A stretch of 63,653 nucleotides of DNA, filler included, from 6 parts of 6 records of this genome joined end to end with filler, not necessarily neighbours in it, one strand, 5' to 3'; positions 1,566 to 57,854 are shown, numbered from the whole stretch's first letter. Notes: a model not told the origin generated them from the letters alone. Program-made: numbers and translations.

Positions 1566-1590
1566 GCCCGCGTGACACCGTTGCAGGTGT

Positions 1591-6316: not shown

Positions 6317-6366
6317 TCGGGGGCTTCTCTGTATCAGCGTGAGCAGAGGAAGGCGATACGTTCCGG

Positions 6367-6681
6367 CTATTTTTTCTGGGTGAAGCGGTCTGTTACCACC
6401 ATCTCCCCTCTGGGGAAGAGTGACTCGGTTTTTGTGTCGGGGTCCTCGGTGAATTCCTCAATCAGCGAAACCGATTGGAACGGCAGCATTAATTGTCTTA
6501 CTTCACTGAAATTTCTCCGAATCTCATCGTCTGCCGGGTTGATCAGTACCCCGTTTTCCGGAGGGAGAACCAGGTCCTTGATGGACACGAAATAGGGGTG
6601 GGTCATGTCGAGACTGCGGGCCTTGAGTTCGTACTGCTTTTCTTTCCAGGTGAAGTGAACGCGAAAAATGTTATTCATCAA
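6367..6681 (-). CDS. DUF1820-like small protein
   Basis: IFRVHF..YELKAR..FVSIKDL..LINPADDEIRRNF..LPFQSVSLIEE pattern. Confidence 0.65.
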   Translation of the reverse strand: MMNNIFRVHFTWKEKQYELKARSLDMTHPYFVSIKDLVLPPENGVLINPADDEIRRNFSEVRQLMLPFQSVSLIEEFTEDPDTKTESLFPRGEMVVTDRFTQKK

Positions 6682-6817
6682 AGTAGGCTTGGCATGAACA
6701 GGTGGAATTGGCTATTTCTGGTAATTTCATCAAAAGACAATTATTCTTCAAGCTGAGAGCCTTGTCAACCTGATGAAGAATAAAGGTACCATAAAAGGGG
6801 AAGAACCCGGAGGTAGT

Positions 6818-7870
6818 ATGCGAATAGACACGGAATATTTCGGTACAGTCAACGGGATGGATATCAACAGGTATCACTTGTGTCATGACAACGGGTCGGT
6901 CGTCTCCATAGCCGGATTTGGTGCGTTGATAACCTCCGTGCAGGTACCGGACCGCGATGGGGAGTTGGTCGATGTTGTACTTGGGTACGATACGCTGGAT
7001 GAGTATGTCTACGACAAGATCTTTATCGGCAGCCTGGTCGGGCGTTATGCAAACCGTATCAGGGAGGGCAAAATCCTGATCGGTGGCACCCCCCACCAGC
7101 TTACCTGCAATCGGCCGGGAATTCATCTGCATGGCGGAGAGACGGGGTTCAACAAGAAAATCTGGAAGGCCGAGTCTTTCGTGGATGAAAGCGGGTGCGG
7201 GGTTGAGCTCGGTCTGCTGAGCCTGGACGGCGAGGAAGGATTTCCGGGCAACCTCACGGTCTCCCTTCGTTACCTCTTCACACCGGACAGTGAACTGATA
7301 GTTCACTATCGTGCCGAGACGGACAAGCCGACCATCGTGAATTTGACCCAGCACTCCTATTTTAACCTGTCGGGCGGTGGGCCGATCACCGATCACCATC
7401 TCTATATCAATGGATCACACATTACCCCGGTCGGACCGGATCTGCTGCCGACAGGAGAGCTGATGGCGGTTGACGGAACCCCTTTTGATTTCAGAAACTC
7501 GCGGCCGATTTTTGCCGCCATGATAGAGGCAGATGCTCAGAAGCCCAAAGGAGACGGGTTCGACCACAACTATGCACTCGATACCGCTGGAGACCTCGAC
7601 AAAGTTGCTGCGCTCGTTTTCGAGCCTGCTTCCGGACGAACCATGGAGGTGCGGACGACCAAGCCCGGGATGCAGCTCTATACCGGTAACTATCTCAATG
7701 GAACACTGCGTGGAAGAGCCGGGCAGGTGTTCGACCAGCATGGGGCGCTCTGCCTTGAGACACAGTACTATCCGGACAGCCCGAACCATCCTTCATTTCC
7801 ATCGCCATTCCTGCTCCCCGGGCAGGTATATGAGCACACCACCGTCTATCGTTTTGGGGTGAAGGGGTAG
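6818..7870 (+). CDS. galM: Aldose 1-epimerase (galactose mutarotase)
   Basis: GRYANRI, HLHGG, NLTQHSYFNL, FDHNY, QLYTGN, CLETQYYPDSPN; SD GGAGG before ATG 6818. Confidence 0.95.
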   Translation: MRIDTEYFGTVNGMDINRYHLCHDNGSVVSIAGFGALITSVQVPDRDGELVDVVLGYDTLDEYVYDKIFIGSLVGRYANRIREGKILIGGTPHQLTCNRPGIHLHGGETGFNKKIWKAESFVDESGCGVELGLLSLDGEEGFPGNLTVSLRYLFTPDSELIVHYRAETDKPTIVNLTQHSYFNLSGGGPITDHHLYINGSHITPVGPDLLPTGELMAVDGTPFDFRNSRPIFAAMIEADAQKPKGDGFDHNYALDTAGDLDKVAALVFEPASGRTMEVRTTKPGMQLYTGNYLNGTLRGRAGQVFDQHGALCLETQYYPDSPNHPSFPSPFLLPGQVYEHTTVYRFGVKG

Positions 7871-7956
7871 GTGGGCGAGGTGATAACGGCAGGAAGTCCC
7901 GATGCTCCTGATGTGCTGCTTGCATCTGTGGTGAAGATGTATATTTTGTCGCACTA

Positions 7957-8852
7957 ATGAGAACATTTACCATATACATACCGACGATCCTGTTCTTCCT
8001 GACGGTCGGCCTGTCGGTACTGCTCTACTTTTCCGGTTGTGTCGCGGTACCGAAACAGGCGGTCGTCGTCAGCGGTGTAAACGATCAGGCCATTCATCGG
8101 CAGGCGGTTACCTGCAGCCCGGAACTTGAATTTGTAGCAGACACCGGAGTGGATGGCGGAATCGATCCGGAGGGATTCAGCCTTTTGAGCTGGAATTCCC
8201 ACCGCGGTATCCATCGTGACTGGCAGAAGGATCTGATTGCGTTCGGTAAAGCCAGTGATATTATCCTGCTCCAGGAGGCGGCGCTTGACTTGCTCCAGGA
8301 GGCCCAGGGCGATCTGTTCGCGGACCGGTGGCTCATGGCCACCGCTTTTGAGCTGGAGGACAGGGAGATCGGCATTCTGGCTGCAGCCCGCGTATCCCCC
8401 CAGGGTATTGTGTCTCACGAGAGCCGGAACCGTTATTCAGGATTCCCAAGATCGGTCTGGCAGTCGCGTATCCGCTAGCGGGTATGGATGCTCAATTGCT
8501 CGTCGTAAATATCCACATGGTCAATTTTACCTTTTCCACCGATGCGGTGAGGCGGCAGTTCGATGCGTTGTCTGAGATTGTGATGAACCATGAAGGACCG
8601 GTAATCATTGCCGGCGATTTCAATACCTGGAACGACAGCCGGGAATCGGTTGTTCAGCAGCGTATGGACGATCTGCATATGACGCCGGTCAGCTTTCTAC
8701 CGGATAACAGAGTCACGTTTTTCAATCGCGCGGTCGATGGCATCTACTTCCGGGGACTGGAAGTTACCGGTTCCACGTCTTACCAGGTGGAGAGTTCTGA
8801 TCACAATCCACTTGAGGTTCATTTCCGCCTGACTGACAGTACCCACGGATGA
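7957..8852 (+). CDS. Endonuclease/exonuclease/phosphatase (EEP) family protein, frameshifted near ~8400-8440
   Basis: LLSWNSH, LLQEA in ORF 7957; NIH, AGDFNTW, DGIYFRGL, SSDHNPL in ORF 8484. Confidence 0.85.
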
Positions 8853-9250
8853 AACAACGCCTTATCGTCATTCTTACCGTGCTGTTCGCTTCCGGTGCAT
8901 ATGCGGGCGACAGCTATTTCAAGGACGAAGTCGCCTATCTTCTGGACTTTATTGAGTATTCCGACTGTACATTCATCCGCAATGGAAAACGCTACACCTC
9001 TGTCGAGGCCAGGGCGCATATCGGGAGAAAATTCGACCATATCGAAAAACGGATATCGACGGCAGAACAGTTTATCAGATACGGTGCCAGCAAGAGTTCC
9101 ATTACCGGGCGGGTCTACCAGGTTGAGTGCGGAACGATGTCTATAGCCGCTGCTCAGTGGCTTGGAGAGGAACTGGCTCGGTACAGAGAGGGGCGGGCGG
9201 CAGACCCGGAACCGTCGGCATCGGTTGCACCGGATAGAGAAGGTGACTGA
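8849..9250 (+). CDS. Secreted DUF5329-like protein
   Basis: Signal peptide; CTFIRNG..A.AH...K, TAEQFI..ASKSS.TG..Y.V.C. Confidence 0.75.
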   Translation: MKQRLIVILTVLFASGAYAGDSYFKDEVAYLLDFIEYSDCTFIRNGKRYTSVEARAHIGRKFDHIEKRISTAEQFIRYGASKSSITGRVYQVECGTMSIAAAQWLGEELARYREGRAADPEPSASVAPDREGD

Positions 9251-9354
9251 GCTCACATTGAGTGGGGCTGCTCATAGGGTGAGAAAATAATTGACAAAAA
9301 TGAGAAAATGTTAGACGATTGCCCCCAAAGATAACGGCAATTTCAATGTGACGG

Positions 9355-10569
9355 ATGGTACAATTGTATACGGTTATACGGGTAATATCGCGCGTCTCGG
9401 TTCAGAGGCGTGGGGGCGCCATTGCCGGTTTTGCTCTTCTCCTGTTGTTATTCTCTTCCACACATCTCCTCGCTAACGGCGACCCCGCAGAGGCTCCAGG
9501 CATAAAGAAATCCCCGCAGGCTGTCGGGCAGCCGCTGATCGACGAGTCGGTTCAGCCGGCCGAACCCGAGGTGATGCGCGACTATGGGGAGATACGTATT
9601 TTGAGTACAGACCAGGAGAATGTGCTGAATAAAACTTCCGTTCAGGGAGAAGACATTCCGTTTGTCGACGATTCTACCGAGGACGGGCTCGATGCGCTCC
9701 AGGAAAAGGGTAGTGCTCTGGTCGTCGGTGCAGCGGAATGGATCGACTCGTTCTTCAATGACCCGCGGTACGTAGCGGAGGAAAACCGGACCCGGGCAAA
9801 AGTGAAACTGGGCGGTGGCTATTCGAAACACTACGATATCGAGACCTACGCGTCGATCGATCTCAAAGTCAGTCTACCCAAACTGGAAAACAGGGCGAAT
9901 GTCTTCCTGCGGATGAATGACGACAGCGATTTCGACGTGGAAAGTTCTCCCATTCCCAACACCGAAGGCGGCGCGAAAAACGACCGCGAACAGCTGACCG
10001 CCGGTGTCCAGTATTTCCTGAAAATGGGCGAAAGATACAATATCTCCGTCGATACCGGACTGTCCCTTAACTATGTGTACGGCGGGCTCCGTTTCCGGCA
10101 CCTGCACAATCTCTCTTCAAACGGGTGGACCGGGAGGTTCACTGACCGGATACGCTGGTACAGTGATGACGGGTGGGAGAACAAAGCGTCGTATGATATC
10201 GAAAAATTTTTTGGAGAGCGGTTCCTGTCGCGTACGATATTCACCGTGCTGCTTTCGGAGGAAACTGAAGGGGTGCCGTTTTCAGCTGTTACCCGGCTGT
10301 TCCAGGTTATTGATATCGACTCGGCCCTGTCGTATGACGTTTCGGCATTTTTCGACACCGAACCGGAGTTTGAGCTCACCGATTTCCAGCTTAAATTACG
10401 CTATCGACAGAGATTTTACAGGGACTGGCTCGTACTCGAGCTGAATCCACTGATTACATTCCCGGCTGAGTTCGATCATGAATACAATCCGGGCTTCATT
10501 GCGAAGTTCGAAATTGATTTCGGCTACCTCAGCAATCGAAAAGCGTACGACAGTATCTTCGAATTTTAA
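9355..10569 (+). CDS. Putative outer-membrane beta-barrel protein
   Basis: N-terminal hydrophobic signal, amphipathic strands (YRQRFYRDWLVLELNP), terminal Phe. Confidence 0.6.
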   Translation: MVQLYTVIRVISRVSVQRRGGAIAGFALLLLLFSSTHLLANGDPAEAPGIKKSPQAVGQPLIDESVQPAEPEVMRDYGEIRILSTDQENVLNKTSVQGEDIPFVDDSTEDGLDALQEKGSALVVGAAEWIDSFFNDPRYVAEENRTRAKVKLGGGYSKHYDIETYASIDLKVSLPKLENRANVFLRMNDDSDFDVESSPIPNTEGGAKNDREQLTAGVQYFLKMGERYNISVDTGLSLNYVYGGLRFRHLHNLSSNGWTGRFTDRIRWYSDDGWENKASYDIEKFFGERFLSRTIFTVLLSEETEGVPFSAVTRLFQVIDIDSALSYDVSAFFDTEPEFELTDFQLKLRYRQRFYRDWLVLELNPLITFPAEFDHEYNPGFIAKFEIDFGYLSNRKAYDSIFEF

Positions 10570-10627
10570 TCTGGACGAATTACCCCGAGCAGCACCACTC
10601 CTCATGCGTCGGTGACGACGGCCTCGT

Positions 10628-11692
10628 TTACCCGGTGGGCAGGGTGAGAATCGGAGCAGGTGCCTGGGAACCGCTTTCGGCCAGACTGAACAAAAAGAGC
10701 AGGAACGAGAACACCCGTTTCGAGCGGAAATCGGTGTCCTCGATATAGAACCAGAGGTCGCGATAATAGACGGAAAGAAACGCGTCCGAAGGTTGGTCGA
10801 CCCCACTCCTGATCATAACCCTCGATCTCATTTCTTCGGATGTTCCCGGCGCATCGGTGATACCTGGAGATGCCCGGTTTTCTTCCACGTGTTTCCGTGG
10901 GATTTCAACATACTGGGAGAGTTCGGAGAAAACATCGAGCATTGACCTGGTCAGCATTGCGATCTCCGCACCGGAGCCTGCCGATGAGCCGAAAACTAGC
11001 TTGAACTCCCGCTTGTCAGGATCCAGCCCCAGAAGCTTATCGACAGCCGAGACGTGCTGTTCGGTCTGGTTATCCAGACTCTTTCTGAAATAGATGATCG
11101 AGTGGGTGCCACCCCGTTCGATCAGGCGGCCCCCAAGCCCTCCTGCATGCTGGATCGCGGACAGGTGCGCGAGCAACTGGTCGAACTCTTTGTCTGCGCT
11201 GCGCCTCGCCATCCGTTTTCCACTGTTGTTGTGCAGATCGTTAATTGCCGTGAGGCAGATACGGAGGATGAAATCGGCATTCCAGCCGGACTGAATAAGC
11301 ATGAACAGGGCGTGCGGGGGGATCGGCGTCAGCAGACTTTTGTAAAAACGGTCTCCCATCAACGGAGTATATGTGATGGTCGGTTTGTCTGAGTATTTTC
11401 CCGATCCACCGAGGGTCAGCCCGTCTCCGACCAGATCGCCGGAACGAAGTAACGCTTCAGCCTCGAGTTGCCGCTCAAGGGTATACTGATTGACGATCGA
11501 GCCGACCTCCATAAATATCGGGGTGTCGCCATAGCGCAGTTTGACGATGTTGAGCAGCATCATCTCCTTCCACGATTCGGCGACCGCACCTGAATATTCG
11601 AACCGGTCTCGCTCGATACTTGATGGTCCGATAGTCGTGCAGCCAGAGAACAACAGCAGGCATATCAGGCCCAATGCATGGAATCTATTCAT
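10628..11692 (-). CDS. Conserved hypothetical lipoprotein
   Basis: Lipobox LFSGC; MLLNIVKLRYGDTP, PTITYTPL, WFYIEDTDFRSK. Confidence 0.7.
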   Translation of the reverse strand: MNRFHALGLICLLLFSGCTTIGPSSIERDRFEYSGAVAESWKEMMLLNIVKLRYGDTPIFMEVGSIVNQYTLERQLEAEALLRSGDLVGDGLTLGGSGKYSDKPTITYTPLMGDRFYKSLLTPIPPHALFMLIQSGWNADFILRICLTAINDLHNNSGKRMARRSADKEFDQLLAHLSAIQHAGGLGGRLIERGGTHSIIYFRKSLDNQTEQHVSAVDKLLGLDPDKREFKLVFGSSAGSGAEIAMLTRSMLDVFSELSQYVEIPRKHVEENRASPGITDAPGTSEEMRSRVMIRSGVDQPSDAFLSVYYRDLWFYIEDTDFRSKRVFSFLLFLFSLAESGSQAPAPILTLPTG

Positions 11693-12062
11693 GAAACACC
11701 TACCGTATCACGCCGAAACCTTTTTTAAAGTGGTCCCCGGAGACCGTTCACCCGATATGGAGTATACTTCAGATAAAAGGACGAGCGCAATGATAAGTTA
11801 CGGATTCTACATTGCATTTCGATTCTCGATGATCTACTTTGAGACTGTAGGTAACTGTCAGGTCGCTCGGGGACAGTGGTGATCAGCAGCAGAGTGATGG
11901 AGGTTTCGGCGTGGTTGCCGACCTGTGTTTCGGTTTTATAATCTTCTGATCACCCGTTCTTCAAGGTACCGGTTTGACTGCGGAGAAACAGTCTGATTAT
12001 ATCCAACACCTGAACGTTTCACGGTAACCCAACAAACAGTTCATTTCCTACGGAGAGGAGAT

Positions 12063-14737
12063 ATGAAGCTTTTTCTTAAAATTTTCGGTTTTACGCTGCT
12101 CTTTCTCGTTGGTCTGGTTGCCGTCGTATTGGTCGCGGTCCAGTTTATCAGCGATGATCAATACAGGAAATGGATTACCGGGGCAGCCGAGTCGGCCACC
12201 GGGCGTGAACTGACAATCGACGGTGAACTCGATGTGACACTTGGCACAACGGTCGGGCTGCTTGCCCGCGATGTTCGTTTCGGTAACGCGGAATGGGGGA
12301 GTCGGGACGAGATGGTGAATGTCGAGCGGCTGCTGGTGCAGGTTCCGTTGTTCCCACTGTTCAAGGGGGTGCTTGATGTGACGGTGGAGGTCGACGGCCC
12401 GGACATCCTCCTCGAGACCGACGCTGAGGGAACCGGGAACTGGGTGTTCGGTGAACCGTCTTCCGGGGTAGAAGAAAAAGCTGATGGCAGTGTGGAAGAA
12501 GGTGAAGACACGGCGAGCGGGCTGCCGATCAGGCCGTATATCCGTAATTTCGAGATCAATAATCTCGTCTTTGCATTCAAGGATGAAGCAGGCGGGCAAA
12601 ATATCGACGCGGGCGTGGAAGAGCTCCGCATATTCGTTGACGGTGAGCAGATCCCGCTGACGCTCAAGGCAACGTATCAGGGTGCGCCAATAACGCTGGA
12701 CGGTTCTCTGGGCAATATCGAACAATGGTTTGAAAACCAACAGACTCCACTCGCTCTGAACGGGAAGTTACATGAAGCACTCCTGTCTGTTACCGGAACG
12801 GTCGGGCCGGTATTACCGCAGCCTCGGGCGAAGATCGATATTGGTTTGAGCGCAGACAGTATCAGCACGTTCAGCGATTTTGCCGGAACTGCACTTCCCG
12901 ATCTTGAAGGACTTCAACTTGCGCTGACAACGGTGGCAGTTGATGGCAGGCTGTCAACCGAGAATATCACTATCTCACTGCAGGATCCTCGATTGAACGT
13001 AGAGGTGATCGGGGCGGTGCAGGACCTCACTGATACGGGAACCATAGATTTACAGGTGGCAATCAGCTCCGAATCGGCCAACGAACTCCTTGCCGGGCTC
13101 AATCAACAGATCCCCTATACCCTTCCGTCTGAGGTCGATGTAAATGCCTCGATATACGGAGATTTTTCAGCGATATCGGTAAGTGACCTTGAGCTGAGCA
13201 TCAAAGACGAGGGACTCGACGTGAATCTTGCCGGAGCTCTGGAGAATCTGCTGGCGCCTGAGGGAGGGGAGGTGGTCTTGCAGGTCCTCCTCGATTCAAC
13301 AGGCACGATCGGTCAATACATCAACCAGGAGATTCCATCGTTTGGTCCGTTGTCCGGGACAGCACGGATTTCCTCCGAGGGGACGCGGGTGCAGTTGGAG
13401 TCTCTTGAACTCGATGTATCCGATCCGTTGATAACTGCCAAAATAAACGGATCCGCCTCGGAGATCGGCCGTGATGCCGAGGGTGATTTCGCCGTAAACG
13501 GTATAGCACTGACCGGTGATATCACCTCCGAAAATCTCCAGGGGATTGCGGATACATTTGCAGTGGCACTGCCGGGAGAGTTGCCCGCGTCGTTTTCGCT
13601 TCATGGGGAGGCCGGAGGAAACCTCAGCGAACTCGCTCTGCAGGTGTTGAATGCATCGGTTCTTGACGAGGGTATTGAAGTGCAGGTGTCTGGCAACGTT
13701 GAAAACCTTATCGGTCTCAAAGGGGTTGAGGCCTCTGTTTTCGGAACGGTGGAGGATACGTCGCTGTTTACTAAATTTGCCGGCACGGAGATCCCCAGCC
13801 TTGGTTCCCTGGATCTGCAGGGACAACTCGTTTCAACCCCGGAAAGCTATCGTCTCAACAGCCTGGATGTAAAGCTGGCAGGGGGGCCTGCGGAGGTGAG
13901 CCTGAAAGCGGCTGTTGAAGACCTGCTGAAGCTGACCATGATAGAGGCGGAGCTGGATGTTAATCTCGAGTCGCTCTCAGAACTCTCGGAGCTTGCCCAA
14001 ACGGAGCTCCCCCAAACCGGACCATGGAAGGTTCACCTGGCCGCCAATTCGGATAACCTCCGGGAGAGTCCGCTGGTGCTGGCTGCAGACTTCGGAGGAG
14101 AAGGAATGAATGCCGTGCTGAATGCCAACGTGCCCGACATCTCTGCACCGCAGACGTTCCAGACAGAGTTGAAAGTGGATATGGTCTCGATCGCACAGGT
14201 GCTTGCCATAGCCGGTCGTGAGGTGCCCGAACAGGTTGATACGCCGATGAATATCGCTGTAAAGGCTAAAGGGAAACCTGGTGAATACAACCTCGAGAAT
14301 TTTTCTGTGACGAATGAGGAAAGTGAAATCTCCGGCGATCTGCTCTATCTCGTGCCGCCGGCAGAGGGTGTCGAACGTCCGAGCCTGTCGGGGAAACTTA
14401 CCATCAACAACTTTGATATAAACCCTTTCCTGGAGGCGAAAAGAGAAGCTGAAGAGGAGGTAGTGGCAGAGTCACCGGAGGCAGAGACCCCCGAAACAGA
14501 GGGTACAGACGCACCGGCTGATGCAGACGGCGAACCGAAGAAATTATTCTCAAGTGAGCCTCTGGCTGTCGGAATTCTGCACAATTACGATATCGACTTG
14601 AAAATAGATGCATCCAATGTAATCGTCAGGGACGGGGTGGTGTTGAACGGCGATATTGACGTAATCCTTGATGATGGTTACCTGAGTGTAGACCCACTCC
14701 AGCTTGATGAGAGCAAGGGGGGAACGGGGAAGGGATA
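12063..14737 (+). CDS. AsmA-family (bridge-like lipid transport) protein, 3' truncated
   Basis: N-terminal TM, ATGRELTIDG, DVRFGNAEWG, GNW motif, long beta-rich repeats; runs into the linker. Confidence 0.85.
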
Positions 14738-14837
14738 NNNNNNNNNNNNNNNNNNNNNNNNNNNNNNNNNNNNNNNNNNNNTTAATTAATTAANNNNNNN
14801 NNNNNNNNNNNNNNNNNNNNNNNNNNNNNNNNNNNNN
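14738..14837. other. Artificial contig linker 1
   Basis: N44-TTAATTAATTAA-N44, stops in all six frames. Confidence 0.99.
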
Positions 14838-15251
14838 CAATTAGCCATGGGGGGATTTCTTTTTTGGTTTTAGTCATTTATTTATCCTTTATTAAGCTTT
14901 GACATATATGTATTAGCATACTATGTTTTTGTGAAAAAACGCAACTTGGGGTTTTTGGCACAACGCCCCAAAAGGGAACCCTTTTGACATAAAAAACGGG
15001 AACTGGAATACGTCTTCGTCACTACCGGAACGGCACGAAAATGAAAGTGGAAGGTTTTACAAAAATCCTATGTGCGTTACGTACCTTTATGTAAGATGAC
15101 CCAAAAGTCTGAAAGATGGTAAAAAATATGGAACCGTTCTTGGGGACCATTCCCTTTTTTCGATTTTCACTTCTTCCATTCATATCACTCTCCGAGGCGC
15201 CCCCCAGTGGGATTGGTGCGGCTCGGGTCAGTTTAAGTTTAAAAAAAAATC

Positions 15252-15313
15252 TTTACATGGATGATTTTATATGACTATATACGAATAGTTTTTATACGGA
15301 TATAGTTTTTATA
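15252..15313 (+). promoter_or_regulatory. Putative promoter and WYL-regulator operator
   Basis: TTTACA (15252) with a TATATA-like -10 (~15276); inverted ACTAT/ATAGT and direct ATAGTTTTTATA repeats (15285-15296, 15302-15313). Confidence 0.5.
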
Positions 15314-15337
15314 TTCTTCAAGGGTGCGAAAATAAAA

Positions 15338-16174
15338 ATGAAATGGGGTGTCAGACAAAGGTTAGAGTTCATTGAGTATCGGCTTTTCTGGGAAGGTACG
15401 ATAAACAGGAAAGCTCTGATTGATACTTTCGGGGTTTCTGTTCCTCAAGCATCTGCCGATATCAAGAAATACAAACAGAATGCACCAGGCAATATTTATT
15501 ATGATAAGAGCCTGAAACGGTATCTGGTGACTTCTAAATTTAAACCTGTTTTGGGGCCAATTAATTCTCATAATTATCTGTCCCAGTTATCCCAGTTATC
15601 TGAAGGGGTTATAAAAAAGGATGATACTTTTTTGGGGTTCATTCCACAATATTCAGTGATGCCTTCATTTGAGAGAGCTATTGATCCTAATATTTTAAAG
15701 AAGATAGTAAAGGTGCTCAAGGCTGGGAATTTTATCAATATTCAATATCAGTCAATGAGCAGGCCTGACCCGGTTTGGAGGTGGGTTTCACCACATGCTT
15801 TTGCTTATGACGGGTTCCGTTGGCATATCAGGGCTTATTGTGAGCTTGTAGATGAGTTCCGGGATTTTATTTTAGGCCGGATCTTAGATGTTCAGAATGT
15901 GAAGGTTTCCAAAGTTGATTCTGCAGATGATTATAAGTGGAATCATTTTGTAACATTGAAGATAGCCGCTCATCCAGATTTAACCCCGGGTCAGCGCAAG
16001 ATAATTGAGAAAGAGTACAATATGAGTGATGGCGTTGCTCAAATAAAGGTCAGGGCAGCATTCATATATTATGTATTGCTCCGGTTTAGACTTGAAAATG
16101 AGGATGATACAAGATTTTCAAAAAATAAAAACGCTATATTATTGAATTATGATGAAATTGAAGCGTATATATAA
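15338..16174 (+). CDS. WYL-domain transcriptional regulator, CapW/BrxR-like
   Basis: RLEFIEYRLFWEG.INR, FGVSVPQASADI wHTH; YQSMS, SPHAF..DGFRWHIRAYC, FRDFILGRI; HPDLTPGQRKIIEKEY. Confidence 0.92.
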   Translation: MKWGVRQRLEFIEYRLFWEGTINRKALIDTFGVSVPQASADIKKYKQNAPGNIYYDKSLKRYLVTSKFKPVLGPINSHNYLSQLSQLSEGVIKKDDTFLGFIPQYSVMPSFERAIDPNILKKIVKVLKAGNFINIQYQSMSRPDPVWRWVSPHAFAYDGFRWHIRAYCELVDEFRDFILGRILDVQNVKVSKVDSADDYKWNHFVTLKIAAHPDLTPGQRKIIEKEYNMSDGVAQIKVRAAFIYYVLLRFRLENEDDTRFSKNKNAILLNYDEIEAYI

Positions 16175-16194
16175 CAAATCCAAGAGAATTGACT

Positions 16195-17127
16195 ATGTAT
16201 TTTAATCCAAAAAAAGTTGCGTTTTCCAGGCATGAATCTTTCGTCCTTCGGTTCGGTTGGCTTACAAAGGGATTTCGTGCATTTGAAGAAGACCAAGGTA
16301 TATTCAGCAATAATGATGCAGTCGTGACGTTAGGTGTTGGAAAGAATATGGTAAATTCGATTAGACATTGGCTCCGCGCATCCAAATTAATAAATTTAGA
16401 TACTGAAAAGAAGGAAACCACACCGATTGGAGATGCTATTTTCTCAAAAGAAAAAGGTTGGGACCCTTTTTTAGAGGACGAAGCGACTATTTGGTTGATT
16501 CACTGGTTGATTTCAACAAACCCAGACCATGCAACCGCATGGTATTGGTTTTTCAATAATTTTCATAAGCCTGAATTCACAACCGAAGAAGTGGTTTCTG
16601 CACTTTCTACTTTTGCAAAAGAAAAGATCGAGACCCGGTTTGCCATGGGTTCAATCAAACAGGATGCAGCTGTCTTGTTAAGGTCGTATGTCCAGTCGAA
16701 AAAGAGCAATAAGGCTGCTTATGAAGATGTTCTCGATTCTCCACTTTCGTTATTGAAATTGATTTCATATTCAACTGCAACAAAATCTTATCAATCAAGG
16801 TTGAAAGATCGTGAGAACCTGCCGATAGGTATCTTTGGTTATGCGATTTGTACTTATCTAAAACAGTTGAACCTGTCACAGGTGCCAATTGAAGATTTGA
16901 TTTATTGCAAAGAGGGAAGTGTTGCCCCTGGGCTTGTTTTCCGCCTGACAGAAAATTCTCTCTTAACCAAGTTAGAAAAGTTGATACAGCTATTTCCTGA
17001 AGAGTTTGCAATCGACCAGACAGCAGGGATTCACCAATTTTTTGTATTAAACGAACTTGAAAATCTTGAGCCTTTTGAAATGTTGAAATTTCATTATGGT
17101 TCAGGAAAAAAACACGAGGCAGCATGA
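16195..17127 (+). CDS. DUF4007 family protein (SspB-like)
   Basis: FSRHESFVLRFGWLTKG, LGVGKNMVNSIRHW, DPFLEDEATIWLIHW, PGLVFRL, TAGI. Confidence 0.88.
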   Translation: MYFNPKKVAFSRHESFVLRFGWLTKGFRAFEEDQGIFSNNDAVVTLGVGKNMVNSIRHWLRASKLINLDTEKKETTPIGDAIFSKEKGWDPFLEDEATIWLIHWLISTNPDHATAWYWFFNNFHKPEFTTEEVVSALSTFAKEKIETRFAMGSIKQDAAVLLRSYVQSKKSNKAAYEDVLDSPLSLLKLISYSTATKSYQSRLKDRENLPIGIFGYAICTYLKQLNLSQVPIEDLIYCKEGSVAPGLVFRLTENSLLTKLEKLIQLFPEEFAIDQTAGIHQFFVLNELENLEPFEMLKFHYGSGKKHEAA

Positions 17128-20100
17128 AGCTAACGGATTATATTGATATTGATACGGTTTACACCAGGTCAATAAACATTGAGCGTGATTCAGATTCTGA
17201 TGAGATTGTAAAAGCGTATATCCCGACGAGTCGAGCAGTAAACACGCTGCACCGCATAAACGATACCTTTGACCAGGAAAACACACCAAGGTCATGGGCA
17301 TTGATTGGGCCATACGGTTCTGGCAAATCTTCCTTTGCTGTGTTTCTGTCACACCTCATGAATAATAGTGAAAAATCAGCAACTCAGTCTGCATATGAAG
17401 TGTTAAGCCATATGGATAGTGACCTTTGTGACAGTTTTAAAGATCATATCAAAGATACAAAGGGATATCTGTCAATATTGATTACCGGTGCTCCGGAGCC
17501 TTTAGGTAAGCGGTTCCTTTCAGGGATGTTTGAAGCTGCACAGAAATATTGGAATTCTGTAGGACGCAAACCTTTAATTATCGACAAAATCAAAGACAAA
17601 TTAGACCAGTTAACTTCCACAAGTGCTGAACTCATCGGTTTGCTTGAAGAACTCCAGGAAGCGGTTCAGAAGTCTGGCTCCGGTATCCTGATAATATTTG
17701 ATGAATTCGGAAAATTCTTAGAATATGAAGCAAGGCATTATGGTGCAAATGACATATACCTGCTTCAGCTCCTGTCTGAATTGGCAGTAAAAAAAAATAA
17801 TGCCAATCTGTTTGTGTTCACATTGATGCATCAAGGCTTTGAAGAGTATGCGAAAGGCTTGAGTAAGACACTTAGGAACGAATGGAGTAAGATTCAGGGG
17901 AGATTTGAGACAATTCCTTTCTTAGAATCCACTGAGCAGACCATACATATTCTGAGCAAAGCTTTTATCAACAAGCTGCATAGTGAAGAGCAAAACATCA
18001 TCCACAAAAACTGTGAGAAGATTGCTGCAGTCTTATCAAAAGAAGGTGCCCTACCAGGTTCGTTAGATTCCGGGAAAGCTGCAGATTTGTTTGCAGAATG
18101 TTACCCTCTCCATCCGGTTACGAGCCTTTTGCTCCCAGTCCTCTGTCAAAAGATGGCTCAAAATGAGAGGACTTTGTTCAGTTATCTTGGGAGTCGGGAA
18201 GCATTCGGATTCAAGGATTCCCTGAAAAAGCTTGAATCTACATCAGAGTGGATTCTGCCATGGCAGATATATGAATATTTCATACAAAATCAGCCAGGGG
18301 TAATAACAGATCCGATTGCACATCGCAGGTGGGCAGAGGTTGTAACTGCGGTTGAGAGGTTGGGTGATGCACCGTCAAAAGATATCCAGGTGCTTAAAAC
18401 CATTGGGTTATTAAACATTATCGGTGCACAGGCTGGGTTCAAGGCATCAAAGAAGATCATTGAGTCATGTTCAACAAGTAAAAGAGCTGCAACCATTTCA
18501 ACCAAAGGGCTTGCTGAGAGGTCTGTCATCCAGTTCAGGAAGTTCAGCAATGAATTTCGGGTCTGGCAAGGTAGTGATTTTGATCTGGAACAGGCAGTTC
18601 AGGATGAGCTTGGTCAGGTTGGTCTTTTTGACCTGCCTGAGACTTTAGAAAAATTAAATCCATTGCAGCCGGTTGTGGCTCACCGCCACACAATTGAAAA
18701 GGTGACTCTCAGGTACTTTGTGCCGATTTTTGTTGATGCAAACAATTACAAAAATCACAAATCTAAAGTTCATCAACAAAGGATTATTTTTTGCCTGACT
18801 GAGAATGTGGATGAAATGGAGGTCGCAAAAAAAGAGGTCTCCTCCTATTTTGAAGAGTTTGACATAATCGTTATCTGCCCGAATGGAGACCAGCTAAGGC
18901 AAGCCGTAGGTGAAGTTCTGGCACTTAAGAGGGTTGAACAAAACAGCCCTGAACTGAACACTGACCCGATAGCAAACAGGGAATTCAAAGACCGACTTTT
19001 TGCAGCAGAAATTTTCCAGGATAATTTGTTATCCGCATTGATTGAGTCTCCGCAATCATCTCAATGGTATTGGAATAAAGAAAAGATTGAACTCAGCAAC
19101 AAGAGGGAATTGCAGCAGCATTTATCAACGATTCTTGATTCTATATATTCAAAATCACCAATCGTAAAGAATGAATTGATTAATAGAGATAAGCCTTCAG
19201 CTCAAGCGGCTGCAGCCCGGAATAAATTAGTTTTTGCAATGCTGCACAATCTTGAAAAAGAAGAATTAGGAATTGAAAAGTTTCCGGCTGAAAAAGGTAT
19301 CTACAAGTCTTTTCTCCGTGCAACTGGATTACACAGGCTTAATGAGGAGAAATGGGAATTAGTGCCGCCAGAAAAGGATAATCAATACAATTTATATCCG
19401 GTTTGGAATTATATTGAAGAATTCTTAGAAACAACACAGAAGACTCCGAAGTCTTTTGCAGAATTGAATGAAGAGTTGCTTGCCCCGCCTTATGGTGTGA
19501 AGGCCGGGGTTTTACCATTACTTTATCTGACGGTGTTTTTATACAAACAAAGTGAGTTGGCTTTTTATGAAAATGGCGTTTACACACCTTATATCACAGA
19601 TCAGCATATTGAGCGATTCATGAAACGCCCTGATTACTTTTCAATCCAGCTGTTAAAGATAAGTGGTATCAGGTCATCCTTATTCAATAGCTATTCTAAA
19701 GTGCTATATGGTGATAACCCTAACAAAGAAATAAGTTTATTAAATATTACCCGCCCCCTTGCAAGGTTTATTGCTGGGTTAGAAGATTACACAAAACAAA
19801 CGAACCGTTTATCTGATTCAAGTCAGAATGCATTGAAAGCATTTAATTTATCAAATTCTCCAGGCGATCTATTATTTAATAGGCTACCAAAAGCCTGTTC
19901 ATTTCATGAGATTGGTCCCGATGAGACTAATAAGAACAAGATTAAAGGTTTTACGAATGCTTTAATCAGCGTCATCAGAGAGCTTAGAGACGCATATAAA
20001 AATATGCTTGCGGAGTTTGCAGAGGTGCTCTCAGATTGTTTATTGCCAGATTATAATGAAAAATTAGAATTATCTGAGTTAAGAGTCAAGATTCGTGCAA

Positions 20101-20615
20101 GATATGAAGGTCTCGAAGAATTTACAGTAGACTCAGCGGGCTTAAGGCCTTTTATTGAGCATATAACTGCAAAAAAAGCTGATGATACGATCTGGTTTAA
20201 CAGGCTCTTATTATTTCTTGGCAAGAAAGCTCCAAACAAATGGACTGACATCGAAAGGGATAATGCAGTCTTAAGGTTAACTGAATATTCTAATCGGCTC
20301 ATTGATTTAAGGATCATACAAGGTCACTACATCAAGAATAAAGCTAAATTCCAGGATTCTTTTGAAATCATCCGTGTAAAGTCAATGCGTTTTGGTAAAA
20401 GTGATAATGAAGAAGTTATTACAATAGACCCTTCTGAAAGAGAGTATATTGATAAGCAAAAGGGGAAGTTCTATTCTTTTCTGGAAGATGTGAGCGATAA
20501 ATCATGCATTGCAATTCTGGCTGATATTCTTGATGAATACATGACTGCAAAAAAGAAAAAAAGTGGCAAGCAAGATAATAGCGACAGCCAAGATAGTGAG
20601 GTGTCAAATGGCTAA
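17124..20615 (+). CDS. Large P-loop ATPase (SspC/BrxC-related)
   Basis: RSINIERD, Walker A GPYGSGKS, Walker B ILIIFDEFGKFLE, EWSKIQGRF, YPLHP, QNERTLFSYL, PPYGVKAG; overlaps the upstream stop (ATGA). Confidence 0.88.
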   Translation: MKLTDYIDIDTVYTRSINIERDSDSDEIVKAYIPTSRAVNTLHRINDTFDQENTPRSWALIGPYGSGKSSFAVFLSHLMNNSEKSATQSAYEVLSHMDSDLCDSFKDHIKDTKGYLSILITGAPEPLGKRFLSGMFEAAQKYWNSVGRKPLIIDKIKDKLDQLTSTSAELIGLLEELQEAVQKSGSGILIIFDEFGKFLEYEARHYGANDIYLLQLLSELAVKKNNANLFVFTLMHQGFEEYAKGLSKTLRNEWSKIQGRFETIPFLESTEQTIHILSKAFINKLHSEEQNIIHKNCEKIAAVLSKEGALPGSLDSGKAADLFAECYPLHPVTSLLLPVLCQKMAQNERTLFSYLGSREAFGFKDSLKKLESTSEWILPWQIYEYFIQNQPGVITDPIAHRRWAEVVTAVERLGDAPSKDIQVLKTIGLLNIIGAQAGFKASKKIIESCSTSKRAATISTKGLAERSVIQFRKFSNEFRVWQGSDFDLEQAVQDELGQVGLFDLPETLEKLNPLQPVVAHRHTIEKVTLRYFVPIFVDANNYKNHKSKVHQQRIIFCLTENVDEMEVAKKEVSSYFEEFDIIVICPNGDQLRQAVGEVLALKRVEQNSPELNTDPIANREFKDRLFAAEIFQDNLLSALIESPQSSQWYWNKEKIELSNKRELQQHLSTILDSIYSKSPIVKNELINRDKPSAQAAAARNKLVFAMLHNLEKEELGIEKFPAEKGIYKSFLRATGLHRLNEEKWELVPPEKDNQYNLYPVWNYIEEFLETTQKTPKSFAELNEELLAPPYGVKAGVLPLLYLTVFLYKQSELAFYENGVYTPYITDQHIERFMKRPDYFSIQLLKISGIRSSLFNSYSKVLYGDNPNKEISLLNITRPLARFIAGLEDYTKQTNRLSDSSQNALKAFNLSNSPGDLLFNRLPKACSFHEIGPDETNKNKIKGFTNALISVIRELRDAYKNMLAEFAEVLSDCLLPDYNEKLELSELRVKIRARYEGLEEFTVDSAGLRPFIEHITAKKADDTIWFNRLLLFLGKKAPNKWTDIERDNAVLRLTEYSNRLIDLRIIQGHYIKNKAKFQDSFEIIRVKSMRFGKSDNEEVITIDPSEREYIDKQKGKFYSFLEDVSDKSCIAILADILDEYMTAKKKKSGKQDNSDSQDSEVSNG

Positions 20616-21396
20616 CAAAAATATCCGGCATGTCTGTGGACTTTCTGGTGGTAAAGATAGTGCTGCTTTAGCAATTTATCTTAAAGAGCAAGGATATCCG
20701 GATATGGAATATTATTTCTCTGATACAGGATGTGAACTTCCAGAGACATATGCATTCCTGGACAGGCTTGAGGCTTACCTTGGCGAGAAGATAGTTCGTC
20801 TGGGCAGTCAATCGACATTTGAGCATCATCTTTTCATGAGTGGGGGGATGCTTCCTTCACCCCGGCAAAGATGGTGCACAGTAAAAATGAAGTTGGAGCC
20901 ATTTGAAAAGTTTGCCGGCACCTCAGAAAATGTCAAAAGTTACATTGCTATTCGGGGGGACGAGCACAGAGACGGATATATTAGTTCAAAGCCAAATATA
21001 AAACCTGTTTTTCCATTTGTTCATGATGGGATAGTCCGAAAGGATGTCTTTCAAATATTGGAAGAGACTGTTGGTGTTCCTGAATATTACAAATGGAGGA
21101 GCCGGTCTGGATGTTATTTTTGTTTTTTCCAGCGCAGAGAAGAGTGGCTTGGGCTTTATGATCATCATCCGGATCTTTTCAAAAAAGCTATGGAGCTTGA
21201 AAAGGTTGATGCTAAAGGAAATGGTTATACATGGATTGAAGGCATGACCTTAGAAGAGTTACTGGATAAAAGAGATTCAATCATCGAATACGCCGAAAAT
21301 AGACGTAAAAATGACGACAATAAAACTTGGCAAGAAAAACTTCTTGAGCAGGGTGACGACCCCAACGACCAGGGGTGCCTGATTTGCAGTCTTTAA
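20608..21396 (+). CDS. PAPS-reductase family protein (SspD/DndC-like sulfur transferase)
   Basis: PP-loop SGGKDS, DTG.ELPETY, RWCT, SRSGCYFCFFQ, terminal CLICSL; translationally coupled to the ATPase. Confidence 0.88.
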   Translation: MANKNIRHVCGLSGGKDSAALAIYLKEQGYPDMEYYFSDTGCELPETYAFLDRLEAYLGEKIVRLGSQSTFEHHLFMSGGMLPSPRQRWCTVKMKLEPFEKFAGTSENVKSYIAIRGDEHRDGYISSKPNIKPVFPFVHDGIVRKDVFQILEETVGVPEYYKWRSRSGCYFCFFQRREEWLGLYDHHPDLFKKAMELEKVDAKGNGYTWIEGMTLEELLDKRDSIIEYAENRRKNDDNKTWQEKLLEQGDDPNDQGCLICSL

Positions 21397-21408
21397 ATTT
21401 GGGAGGTT

Positions 21409-21626
21409 GTGATGAGTGTTAGTTTAGTGGAAAATGGTGCTGCCCTTCAGTCAATGCGTAATTCTGATTTTGATGCATATAGTGCCTATGGTGAAGTCAT
21501 TGATAATTCGATACAGGCACATGCCAAAAATATAAGAGTCCATTTTGATTATGAGCCTGCAACTAATAAGCGTGATAAAGAAGGCCTCAAATATGTTGCA
21601 TTTGGTGATGATGGGGGTGGAATGGA
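21409..21626 (+). CDS. GHKL (MutL/MORC-like) ATPase, N-terminal fragment
   Basis: Bergerat motifs YGEVIDNSIQA and DDGGGM; SD GGGAGG; cut by the contig end. Confidence 0.8.
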
Positions 21627-21726
21627 NNNNNNNNNNNNNNNNNNNNNNNNNNNNNNNNNNNNNNNNNNNNTTAATTAATTAANNNNNNNNNNNNNNNNNN
21701 NNNNNNNNNNNNNNNNNNNNNNNNNN
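21627..21726. other. Artificial contig linker 2
   Basis: Same 100-nt N/TTAATTAATTAA spacer. Confidence 0.99.
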
Positions 21727-22545: not shown

Positions 22546-23109
22546 CTAAAAAACCACCTTCTTAGAAGGTGGGCTTGTAAGAAAGCCCCTATAAGGGGCC
22601 AAAATTGAGCCGCTGTTGCTCTTCAAGACGTTCTTGATCTTCTTGATACTTGACATATTTCTTGATCTTTTCTTCATCAAGACCAATTGTGTCCACACAG
22701 TAGCCCCTTGACCAGAAGTGATTGCCCCAATAAGGCTTAACTTTTAACTGTGGATAGCTTTTGAATATTTTTATTGCTGTCTTTCCTTTCAAAACTCCCA
22801 TGAGTTTCGATATGGAAAGCTTTGGAGGAACACTAACTATCAAATGCACATGATCTGACTGGATATTTATTTCTATCAGTTGGCAGTCTTTCCATTCAAG
22901 CAACATCGGGATATCTCGACTCAATTGATCTTTGACAAAACCTTCAAGAATACGGTATCGATATTTCGGAGTCCAAACGATATGATAGGAACACCGGTAG
23001 ATAACATGACTTAATTTCTTGAAATTACTCATGTCACTAAATTAAGAATTTTTAATGCAAAGCATTTTGAACATGACCACCACCAAAGGAGGTGGTTTTA
23101 TAGATTATA
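22546..23109 (-). mobile_element. IS200-type insertion sequence (~560 bp, tnpA only; ends approximate)
   Basis: tnpA flanked by related subterminal hairpins CCACCTTC-TTA-GAAGGTGG (22554-22572) and ACCACC-N9-GGTGGT (23076-23096); interrupts gspE. Confidence 0.88.
22589..23032 (-). CDS. tnpA: IS200/IS605 Y1 HUH transposase
   Basis: YHIVWTPKYR, DHVH (HUH), FWSRGY, YVKYQ. Confidence 0.95.
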   Translation of the reverse strand: MSNFKKLSHVIYRCSYHIVWTPKYRYRILEGFVKDQLSRDIPMLLEWKDCQLIEINIQSDHVHLIVSVPPKLSISKLMGVLKGKTAIKIFKSYPQLKVKPYWGNHFWSRGYCVDTIGLDEEKIKKYVKYQEDQERLEEQQRLNFGPL

Positions 23110-23715
23110 ATAAATTGAAAATTCTTCTTCTTTTTTACATTTGGGACACAAAACCCTTAACAGTCTTTGTGCCATTGAGATATTTAAAGTATTAGCCAAT
23201 AAGTACGGAGGTATATCCATGTCCAGCAATCTAGATATTGTACCATAAGCTGAATTAGTATGGATAGTTGAAAATACAAGATGACCAGTTAGCGATGCTC
23301 GAATTGCCATTTGGGCTGATTCTTTATCACGTATTTCCCCAAGCATGATTATATCAGGATCCTGCCTTAAAAACGTTCGCAAAGCTGCTGCAAAAGTAAG
23401 CCCAATATCTTCCTTGACCTGTACTTGATTTATTCCTTTCAATGTATATTCTACCGGATCTTCTATAGTTAAGATGTTAACATTTTCTTTATTTAAAAGC
23501 TTTAAGCTAGCATACAAAGTTGTTGTTTTCCCTGAACCTGTAGGGCCACTAATTAAAACAATGCCATGTGGTTTTTGAATAGATTTGAGATATTCAACCT
23601 GTTGATCTTTAGAAAAACCTAAATATTCAAGACTAACATTACCAATTTCTTTATTGAGTAGGCGAAGAACAACTTTCTCCCCATACAGGGTAGGCATTAT
23701 TGAGACTCGGATATC
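23110..23715 (-). pseudogene. Central part of a GspE/PilB ATPase, fused in frame to an IS4 transposase N-half
   Basis: DIRVSIMPT, GPTGSGKTTTLY, TIEDPVEY, LRQDPDIIMLGEIRD, TGHLVFSTIHTN, CPKC. Confidence 0.9.
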
Positions 23716-24505
23716 ACTTCTAAACTTTAGGTTTTTCTTTGCTCGTAAAACAAAGAATGCCGAGTGAGTTGTAATCACATAGAGTCTCGTAAAGTCATTA
23801 TATCCACGATCAAATATGTAATATGCTCCAGCTTCGTAAAATAGTTCATCCATTGCATTAACATCATTTACTTTGGCGGATGTTATGTATATAAATACAG
23901 GTATTTGAGTGGTTATTTCAAAAAGAGTATGGAGTTTAATTCCTCCTTTCTTTTTGCGAAACTTAGCCCACCAGAAAATGTTTAAACATAGGTCAATTGT
24001 TGATGAATCAAAGGCATAAATTTTTCCCTTTATCTGAAACTCATCATTAGCATTTTTCTTTCTGGCAGTATTAATTAAGCAATAAGCAAACTCTTCAAAT
24101 ATTTTGTAAGAACGTCTCTTGTTGGCTTTGGCTAGGTTGCCTTTAGTGACACTTTTACCAAAACCAAGATGATAAATCTTGTTGTAATGTGCATTAATAA
24201 CCAATATCAAATCACTTAAACTTTCACGATGTGTAAGTTGACCAAACATCATACAGAGTAATTGGTTCCAACAAGTAAAGTGCCGTACATATTTGTTGCC
24301 TGAATACTTGGCAACAATAGTATCAAACTTATTCTTATCAAGGAATGATGTTAGTTGAGCAAACACATATTTTCCAGTATTCATAGCAACGATTAATTAT
24401 TGCTAGAATATACCGTTTCAAATCCAATGGTTACGCAAATCACTCACAATATAGATTCACAAAGGATTTCAAAGAACGTTTTAATATTTTTAGTCAACAC
24501 TAGTG
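23716..24505 (-). mobile_element. Truncated IS4-family element (DUF4372 + partial DDE transposase, ATG at 24384)
   Basis: MNTGKYVFAQL, FTCWNQLLCMMFGQL, DSSTIDLC, IKLHT, FDRGY; probable left end CACTAGTG at 24505; third catalytic residue and right end missing. Confidence 0.82.
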
Positions 24506-27854: not shown

Positions 27855-27954
27855 NNNNNNNNNNNNNNNNNNNNNNNNNNNNNNNNNNNNNNNNNNNNTT
27901 AATTAATTAANNNNNNNNNNNNNNNNNNNNNNNNNNNNNNNNNNNNNNNNNNNN
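27855..27954. other. Artificial contig linker 3
   Basis: Same 100-nt spacer. Confidence 0.99.
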
Positions 27955-57809: not shown

Positions 57810-57854
57810 GGTGATGATGGTGATGATGATGATGATGATATGCGGGAACCACAG

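Follow-up and report, generated by a model that had tools for sequence, protein, structure and literature searches.

What restriction machinery serves a DNA phosphorothioate writer of the SspBCD kind when the gene behind it encodes neither SspE nor a component of SspFGH? This question is raised by the locus at positions 15338-21626 of the window, i.e., the entire 63,653-nucleotide stretch of DNA under analysis, which holds a regulator gene, the writer genes sspB, sspC and sspD, and the first 73 codons of a gene for a GHKL-type ATPase. The answer proposed here, which we consider quite probable, is that the window carries the writer half and the first restriction gene of a phosphorothioate (PT)-based, restriction-modification-like defence operon, and that the ATPase gene opens a cassette, composed of a MORC-like ATPase, a PC4-like protein, a superfamily 2 (SF2) helicase and a phospholipase D (PLD)-type nuclease, which would act as a PT-coupled restriction arm that spares marked DNA. 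The putative writer role of SspB, SspC and SspD is assigned on family membership, and the presumed restriction-arm role of the cassette on gene linkage.

Architecture of the operon

The five genes are all located on the + strand, are closely packed, and are each assigned to one family by Pfam and PADLOC, in agreement with the initial annotation of this locus, which had described five co-oriented, tightly spaced or overlapping genes with an SspBCD core. The first gene (15338-16174) encodes a WYL transcriptional regulator of the CapW/BrxR family of 278 amino acids (aa; Pfam WYL, 5.5e-10; PADLOC WYL, 3.2e-13). It is followed by sspB (16189-17127, with an alternative in-frame ATG at 16195), the product of which is the DUF4007 protein predicted to be the DNA-binding subunit of the writer (Pfam DUF4007, 9.7e-84; PADLOC SspB, 1.2e-90), and by sspC (17124-20615), which overlaps sspB by 4 nucleotides (nt) and encodes a BrxC-like P-loop ATPase of 1163 aa. 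The PADLOC SspC model matches residues 1-1065 of this protein (E = 0, 1394.7 bits), while the NCBIfam BrxC model returns just 51.9 bits against a cut-off of 400. The fourth gene, sspD (20608-21396), overlaps sspC by 8 nt and encodes a sulfur-transfer enzyme of the PAPS-reductase type with the PP-loop motif SGGKDS (PADLOC SspD, 2.7e-98; Pfam PAPS_reduct, 9.6e-8); a GTG start at 20563 is less likely than the ATG at 20608, since the match to the PADLOC SspD profile starts no earlier than residue 22.

The ATPase gene begins 12-15 nt past sspD, at 21409 or 21412, behind a GGGAGG ribosome-binding site, and is visible as far as 21626. Its translation matches Pfam HATPase_c_3 (9.7e-7) and contains the motifs EVIDNS and DDGGGM pointed out in the initial annotation, which had also recognized that the contig ends inside this gene: since the operon contig stops at 21626 and an artificial spacer comes next, the gene is truly truncated after 73 codons. 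The 6.8-kb contig carries no cysteine desulfurase gene, a role that IscS can fill for SspBCD (PMC8092258; this and the other papers cited below are drawn on in part).

The cassette in a complete relative

Searching one genome per species with SspD yielded 79 loci, among which L001 is the best relative of the window, with the same gene order and with identities of 84, 87, 82, 88 and 93% to the five proteins of the window; by BLASTP, the GHKL fragment is 92% identical (66/72 residues) to the start of the 564-aa L001 ATPase. The L001 operon continues, in order, with genes for this GHKL/HATPase_c_3 ATPase, a 207-aa PC4-domain protein, a 544-aa helicase with ResIII/DEAD/Helicase_C domains, a 319-aa PLD nuclease and a 294-aa protein that joins DUF2196 (YwbE) to AlbA_2. 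The helicase matches RadD (5.9e-36), PbeA (2.6e-27) and TIGR04095, annotated as 'DNA phosphorothioation system restriction enzyme' (4.2e-19), all far under the family cut-offs. PADLOC returned no SspE, SspF or SspG match for the L001 cassette proteins, PglZ and BrxL are absent among the scanned L001 neighbours, and no Z1, DUF4420, AIPR, PbeC or DndE was found among the neighbours of the operon. The PADLOC models themselves are functional, as the SspE model fires on locus L019 and the SspF and SspG models on L021. Judged on this relative, the effector module that begins with the GHKL gene is distinct from both SspE and SspFGH, as had been proposed, although the accompanying guess of a Mza-type MORC/Z1/DUF4420/AIPR module was not borne out, the L001 module being made up of a MORC-like ATPase followed by a PC4-like protein, an SF2 helicase and a PLD nuclease.

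Other SspBCD loci carry other arms in this position. In locus L002, the SspD of which is 89% identical to that of the window, the slot taken by the ATPase gene in the window is filled by an SspE-type gene (with GmrSD N- and C-terminal domains), so that closely related writers carry different arms. The initial annotation had named pglZ/brxL or sspE right after as cases that would speak against it: the former pair is absent in L001, while the latter type of gene occupies the slot in L002. Likewise, its wording that the GHKL ATPase stands instead of SspE holds for L001, but not for loci L014 (15460-17778) and L145 (8958-11015), where the MORC-like cassette and an SspE/GmrSD-type gene share one sspBCD. 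In L015 a Pbe-type arm directly follows sspD (11037-15465; PbeA, 1.5e-229; PbeC, 2.5e-179), and L021 (10777-16898) encodes a 1513-aa protein with protein-kinase-like regions fused to an SspF-like portion and, after it, an SspG-like protein. The 570-aa GHKL gene that follows sspD in L008 was not counted as a MORC-like cassette, its product being only 21% identical and seemingly MzaB-like (2.4e-22).

Features of the cassette proteins

The Bergerat-fold residues of the ATPase (E32, D35, N36, D70, G72 and G74) are invariant in an alignment of 39 sequences. A search of 1.84 billion representative proteins returned 295 representative clusters at E <= 1e-30, mostly as full-length matches, by which the ATPase is a defined family of ~560 aa. 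The best Foldseek matches of the AlphaFold model of the L001 ATPase are the ATPase modules of MORC4, MORC2 and MORC3 (E = 2.5e-14 and weaker, over ~420-490 columns), followed by Hsp90, GyrB and MutL; as modelled, the protein has the GHKL plus S5-type module of the MORC kind.

The N-terminal domain of the PC4-like protein resembles human PC4 (6.3e-11), and its C-terminal ~120 residues are homologous to the tail of the ATPase (hhalign probability 99%, E = 2.6e-18). A model of the complex of the two tails scored 0.76, the best of three controls scoring 0.00, and in a benchmark the 0.76 mark was met by 51 of 78 solved complexes and by 2 of 108 mismatched pairs. The runs share at least 77% of their contacts with a partner predicted local distance difference test (pLDDT) value of at least 71, which supports the prediction that the ATPase and the PC4-like protein touch through their tails.

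All SF2 motifs of the helicase, i.e., the Q motif, PTGSGKT, DEAH, TATP and Q..GR..R, are invariant in 42 sequences, and its profile finds RadD (6.8e-50) and SauUSI, a restriction enzyme (2.1e-28), as the nearest solved relatives. The PLD nuclease possesses a single HKD motif, the HxK...D...GSxN residues of which (H94, K96, S109, N111 and E126) are invariant or nearly so in 40 sequences. Its model (pLDDT 90.8) consists of an N-terminal half that resembles NucT, SauUSI (E = 1.1e-6), Nuc and BfiI, and of a helical C-terminal half with a closing beta-hairpin.

Association of the cassette with phosphorothioate writers

A helicase and a GHKL gene are located beside sspBCD in eight of the 79 genome loci (L001, L013, L014, L016, L023, L032, L066 and L071), with a PLD match in seven of these eight; in two further loci on cut contigs (L003 and L004) the helicase immediately follows sspD, and 69 loci show no cassette. 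The records found with SspD span Pseudomonadota, Planctomycetota, Bacteroidota, Actinomycetota and one 'archaeon' bin. Two gene orders were observed, namely ATPase, PC4-like protein, helicase and PLD nuclease (L001 and L016), and helicase, ATPase and PLD nuclease (L013, L014, L023, L066 and L071).

A metagenome scan with the ATPase family alignment returned at least 492 relatives, and the metagenome counts given here refer to the best 80 loci. Of the 43 loci with at least 2.5 kb of visible downstream sequence, 41 have the helicase gene on the same strand and no more than 1.5 kb downstream, the two others being L112, which carries a lone 711-aa ATPase variant, and L152, which consists of gene fragments; 53 of the 80 loci contain a PC4-like gene, and the PLD nuclease is also seen in the gene maps of these loci. 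PT writer genes are visible in 39 of the 80 loci, 30 of them Ssp and nine Dnd, and in 21 of these 39 the writer is less than 100 nt away from the cassette. Where at least 3 kb is visible on both sides, a writer is seen in 13 of 14 loci, and where at least 4 kb is visible, in nine of nine. The Dnd pairing is exemplified by L126, where PADLOC identifies DndB-DndC-DndD-DndE directly upstream of the cassette, and by L128, with DndD-DndE in that position. The linkage of the GHKL gene with Ssp genes, the tabulation of which in homologous loci had been suggested in the initial annotation, is thus conserved in both genome and metagenome loci.

In a FastTree phylogeny of 80 ATPase sequences (7 from genome loci and 73 from metagenome loci, with open reading frames (ORFs) below 480 aa left out), the Dnd-linked sequences are mainly found in two well-supported clades, and sequences from loci without a visible writer adjoin those from loci with one. 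In the loci inspected, no methylase was found inside the cassette. Locus L095 has two paralogous cassette-type helicase genes (3906-5549 and 8086-9729) on either side of a single ATPase gene.

Cultured strains were also found to carry the cassette. On plasmid CP049030.1 of Rhodobacteraceae bacterium SC52, a distance of 5.9 kb separates a four-gene cassette from the genes sspD-sspC-sspB and that for a cysteine desulfurase, and complete cassettes are also present in Sediminihaliea albiluteola F7430 (L014) and Maribellus mangrovi FJH33 (L066); the locus of an Amycolatopsis strain (L032) is cut inside the ATPase gene and shows the cassette only partly. The cysteine desulfurase gene beside sspBCD on CP049030.1 is followed by a gene annotated as 'DNA phosphorothioation-associated putative methyltransferase' (343368-345395, corresponding to L085 18369-20396). 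Two plasmid hits to the ATPase, H2 and H3, were excluded from all counts, as they share ~28-30% identity with it, occur in other contexts and are probably members of other GHKL families.

Proposed mode of action and alternative explanations

In the mechanism envisaged here, SspB, SspC and SspD, together with a cysteine desulfurase encoded elsewhere, would introduce sulfur into the DNA backbone of the host cell itself. A dimer of the MORC-like ATPase would clamp or loop DNA, the PC4-like subunit, docked on the ATPase via their common C-terminal domain, would sense unwound or single-stranded DNA, the SF2 helicase (which is RadD- and type III Res-like) would translocate, and a dimer of the PLD nuclease would cut DNA without the PT mark, while marked self DNA would be spared, as with SspFGH and DndFGH. 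In some loci a YwbE/AlbA_2 protein is added to this set of ATPase, PC4-type protein, helicase and PLD nuclease. Because the cassette pairs with both Ssp and Dnd writers, PT would be the functional link between the two halves of the system.

A more far-reaching proposal, which is put forward tentatively and with less conviction, is that the MORC-like cassette is a general, sequence-independent reader and effector of the PT backbone mark, interchangeable between Ssp and Dnd writers, and would thereby represent a prokaryotic MORC protein that reads a backbone epigenetic mark. Ssp and Dnd writers mark different sequence motifs, on one or both strands. As the cassette pairs with two unrelated writers, what it senses would under this proposal have to be the sulfur mark as such, or the lack of it, independent of any site; unwound single strands would be offered for inspection by the PC4-type subunit docked on the ATPase tail, and helicase and PLD nuclease would act once licensed by the ATPase clamp.

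Several observations weigh against a PT-coupled restriction arm. The window itself shows only 73 cassette codons, the remainder being taken from L001; the ATPase model is of moderate quality (pLDDT 70.4); and the docking domains of the ATPase and the PC4-like protein are homologous, so that the score of their complex could just as well stem from a domain through which either protein dimerises with itself. No PT-reading domain was found, the structure atlas having provided weak winged-helix leads for the PLD C-terminal domain (template modelling (TM) scores of 0.37-0.57) and nothing informative for the helicase N-terminus. The metagenome tabulation made use of hidden Markov models built from the genome loci and of our own ORF calls, and 41 of the 80 loci have no PT writer in view; nearly all of these are short contigs, where its absence may nevertheless be real. 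Locus L164, the single exception among the 14 loci with at least 3 kb visible on both sides, has no writer within its 10 kb of visible upstream and 3.3 kb of visible downstream sequence and only a DndB-like gene upstream, and its cassette sits next to Mokosh genes (886-5831 and 7943-9139; MkoA, 1.7e-237; MkoB, 2e-73). The ATPase variant of L112 (2053-4188) and L113 (9992-11686), the latter copy being cut at the contig end, stands without a helicase, PLD nuclease or PT writer nearby; in the ATPase tree the two sequences are identical to each other and form a long branch. Cassette and writer genes are convergent in many loci and hence not one transcription unit, and on CP049030.1 they are parted by insertion sequence (IS) elements, including an annotated IS3 transposase gene. 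Finally, defence genes cluster in islands, and neighbourhood by itself can mislead.

Some of these same observations would be expected if the cassette were an independent defence system that is merely co-housed with Ssp or Dnd in islands and has no dependence on PT, namely the writer-less L164 beside Mokosh, the variable orientation and intervening IS elements, and the 41 loci without a visible writer; furthermore, MORC-type modules of ATPase, helicase and nuclease are known to have other partners, such as methylases (PMC2292703). We nonetheless regard such independence as improbable, given the near-constant presence of a writer where enough flanking sequence is visible and the often short gaps between the two, a linkage that spans two unrelated kinds of writer and several phyla, and the lack of a methylase inside the inspected cassettes, while the intermixing of writer-less and writer-bearing sequences in the ATPase tree fits truncated views and not a separate writer-less lineage. 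A somewhat stronger contender, albeit one that we still think unlikely, retains the dependence on PT and reverses its sense: the cassette would work like SspE, with host PT marks switching on the ATPase and nuclease so that incoming DNA is damaged, and loss of the writer would silence the arm and not be toxic. SspE, the best-studied Ssp partner, acts in this way (PMC8092258), the cassette and SspE-type genes occur together in L014 and L145 and could have a common logic, and on CP049030.1 the cassette tolerates IS elements between itself and the writer. Yet the combination of a motor ATPase, a helicase and a nuclease is the make-up of classical ATP-dependent restriction enzymes and of MORC-type operons (PMC2292703), which attack unmarked DNA, as do the multi-subunit arms SspFGH and DndFGH (PMC8092258). 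Attack on unmarked DNA is favoured here by analogy with these systems, the computed results fitting either mode.

Two remaining explanations appear far less probable. The cassette might aid modification or repair, either by opening DNA for single-strand PT writing or by processing PT-related nicks, to which a PC4-type single-stranded DNA binder and a RadD-like helicase would be suited, and GHKL ATPases of the MutL type do act in repair. This seems very improbable, since SspBCD and IscS modify DNA in E. coli without such proteins (PMC8092258), most Ssp genome loci lack the cassette, the HKD motif is invariant, and the PLD fold is closest to nucleases and restriction enzymes. Least to be expected of all is that the locus represents an ordinary named system that was cut off, be it BREX type 4, an SspE- or SspFGH-type Ssp system, Mza or PbeABCD. 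There are matches that would point in that direction, i.e., those of SspC to BrxC models, the weak ones of SspB and SspD to BrxP, a weak one of the ATPase fragment to MzaB (0.0072) and that of the L001 helicase to PbeA; however, the hallmark genes of these systems, SspG and DndE included, are absent from the L001 operon neighbours, the MzaB match falls far below its cut-off, and PbeA is a fused HKD-helicase that acts with a CxC ABC ATPase and a DndE-like protein (PMC10853773), whereas nuclease and helicase are here encoded by separate genes and the ATPase is of the GHKL type.

The regulator and its upstream region

The presence of a CapW/BrxR-type WYL regulator at the head of the operon, as suggested in the initial annotation, is supported by similarity to CapW (PDB 7tb6) at 3e-61 over residues 2-275 and to BrxR (PDB 7t8k) at 1.5e-43. 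Full-length similarity extends to five PDB entries (7tb6, 7tb5, 9c5g, 7t8k and 7qfz, 3e-61 to 2.5e-29), and by these alignments the protein is a full-length CapW/BrxR relative with helix-turn-helix, WYL and C-terminal domains. Known CapW/BrxR repressors head CBASS and BREX operons. The present gene, similarly, stands first in a defence operon, and its product would hold operon expression low until DNA damage or infection occurs. Among the loci compared by tblastn, only the window and L001 have a WYL regulator heading the Ssp genes; no report of a CapW/BrxR protein at the head of an Ssp operon was found, no search having been aimed at that point.

Upstream of the WYL gene, the window and L001 are conserved only over the last ~100 nt before the start codon and are unrelated farther up, so that the similarity between the two starts at the promoter. 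This segment (15240-15337, + strand), a putative promoter/operator, contains an inverted repeat with 14-nt arms (15274-15287 and 15293-15306) that are 86% complementary and are separated by a 5-nt spacer, which makes it a plausible candidate operator, to which a regulatory role may be ascribed.

Composition of the window and transfer of the operon

The window consists of six contigs that are chained by 100-nt spacers, each composed of N44 + TTAATTAATTAA + N44 and located at 14738-14837, 21627-21726, 27855-27954, 46994-47093 and 57710-57809; these are artificial and of no biological meaning. The operon sits on the second contig (14838-21626), ORFs that cross a spacer (12063-14789 and 21409-21678) are artefacts, and genes across contig borders, such as the AsmA-like gene before 14737, are no real neighbours of the operon. 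No further piece of the cassette was found elsewhere in the window by tblastn, and E. coli genomes gave no nucleotide match to the operon.

Between the window and the genome that carries L001, the NrdD proteins share only 30% identity, versus 82-93% for the operon proteins. The comparison points to horizontal transfer of the entire operon, with the caveat that the contigs of the window form one bin and perhaps not one organism.

The G+C content amounts to 49-57% in the first and last contigs (1-14737 and 57810-63653) and to 31-42% in the four middle contigs (14838-57709), a split that may be explained by a bin mixing several organisms or by the low-GC contigs being foreign DNA. The low-GC contigs at 27955-57709 encode an SRP54-type GTPase (of FlhF size), a CheA kinase, two methyl-accepting chemotaxis proteins, a histidine kinase and the anaerobic ribonucleotide reductase NrdD, a gene set that suggests a motile anaerobe. 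A 428-aa ORF at 23098-24384 (- strand) combines N-terminal IS4-type transposase domains (DUF4372 and DDE_Tnp_1) with a C-terminal type II/IV secretion ATPase part (T2SSE, 6.2e-88), and reflects either an in-frame reading across an insertion junction or an assembly error. In the GC-rich last contig, a 459-aa ORF at 57840-59219 (+ strand) carries a BAH domain (1.3e-18), which is mostly eukaryotic and chromatin-associated and hence unusual for a prokaryotic bin.

Novelty and implications

The writer core and the regulator family are already known, as are MORC-type ATPase/helicase/nuclease modules as a predicted kind, while none of the open texts searched mentions a coupling of a MORC-type cassette to PT writers. 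No description of a GHKL/MORC ATPase as a partner of Ssp or Dnd was found in the open full texts searched, a search that did not extend to subscription papers (including the 2020 SspE paper) or supplementary tables, and the neighbour tables of PMC8092258 and PMC10853773 may list such a gene; in the part of PMC10853773 considered, the words GHKL, MORC, MutL, HATPase, Hsp90 and gyrase are absent. The cassette is probably an undescribed enzyme set that destroys unmarked foreign DNA, and is read here as a fourth kind of PT-coupled restriction arm beside SspE, SspFGH and Pbe.

By the count of PMC8092258, 2,211 of 2,678 sspBCD modules (83.9% as given there) lack both SspE and SspFGH as neighbours. 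If the reading of the cassette as a PT-coupled restriction arm is correct, the cassette would fill part of this gap of missing partners and would link PT epigenetics to the MORC ATPase family; should it moreover prove to be a general reader of the mark, it would parallel, directly and at the level of mechanism, the mark-guided action of MORC proteins in eukaryotes. Its pairing with both Ssp and Dnd provides a handle on how the backbone sulfur mark is read, and the cultured strains with complete cassettes make the reading directly testable. For the window itself the value is limited, the direct evidence consisting of the writer operon, the regulator and 73 ATPase codons.

Comparison with known systems

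A close parallel is provided by the SspABCD-SspFGH system of Vibrio anguillarum FF-93 (PMC8092258), which shares the SspB/SspC/SspD core, with IscS or SspA elsewhere, has an adjoining multi-gene arm that can coexist with SspE, as the cassette does in two loci, and probably follows the same logic of attacking unmarked DNA. The two arms differ in their components: SspF has a Walker A motif and SspH resembles FtsK-like translocases (PMC8092258), whereas the motors of the cassette are a GHKL ATPase and an SF2 helicase, and its nuclease is of the PLD type. The PADLOC negative for this arm in L001 covers SspF and SspG, the SspH model never having been seen to fire. The SspABCD-SspE system (PMC8092258) likewise has the same writer core, and its effector directly follows sspD. 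SspE, however, is a single protein of the DUF262/GmrSD type, while the window and L001 carry the ATPase cassette in that slot; the gene after sspD is that for the GHKL ATPase, and L001 is devoid of an SspE match.

PbeABCD, which is centred on a CxC ABC ATPase, is likewise PT-linked, and its HKD nuclease and SF2 helicase are broadly similar in kind to those of the cassette. The partners of PbeA are the CxC ABC ATPase, a DndE-like protein and a small disordered protein (PMC10853773), while those in the cassette are a MORC-like ATPase and a PC4-like protein. Two further candidates were rejected, namely the Hma system, which likewise unites a helicase and an ATPase, together with a methylase, but in which HmaC is a DUF499 ATPase and not a GHKL protein (PMC12839542, PMC8565338), and the GHKL-Shedu of Vibrio cholerae, which is PT-unrelated, as PMC12137116, in the part considered, mentions PT in its reference list only.

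With regard to BREX type 4, neither PglZ nor BrxL was found among the L001 neighbours scanned, the downstream sequence of the window itself being missing. The NCBIfam MzaB model gives 40.8 bits against a cut-off of 850 and covers the N-terminal ATPase fold only, and the neighbours of the ATPase in L001 are PC4, helicase and PLD proteins.

SauUSI targets modified cytosine DNA. This ATP-dependent type IV restriction enzyme (PDB 7clg) resembles the cassette in that it combines a PLD nuclease with an SF2 helicase, and differs from it in being a single polypeptide with no GHKL or PC4-type partner.

In its make-up the arm corresponds to the MORC/paraMORC restriction-modification operons predicted by Iyer, Abhiman and Aravind in 2008 (PMC2292703), in which a MORC-type GHKL ATPase is accompanied by a superfamily II helicase and by a nuclease that sometimes belongs to the HKD type, and in which the ATPase was predicted to loop DNA, the helicase to unwind it and the nuclease to cleave it. 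The terms 'PAPS' and 'DndC' have no occurrence in the part of that paper considered, and the distinction between the two lies in the self-marking partner, which is a DNA methylase in the MORC/paraMORC operons (PMC2292703) and an Ssp or Dnd PT writer in the loci described here.

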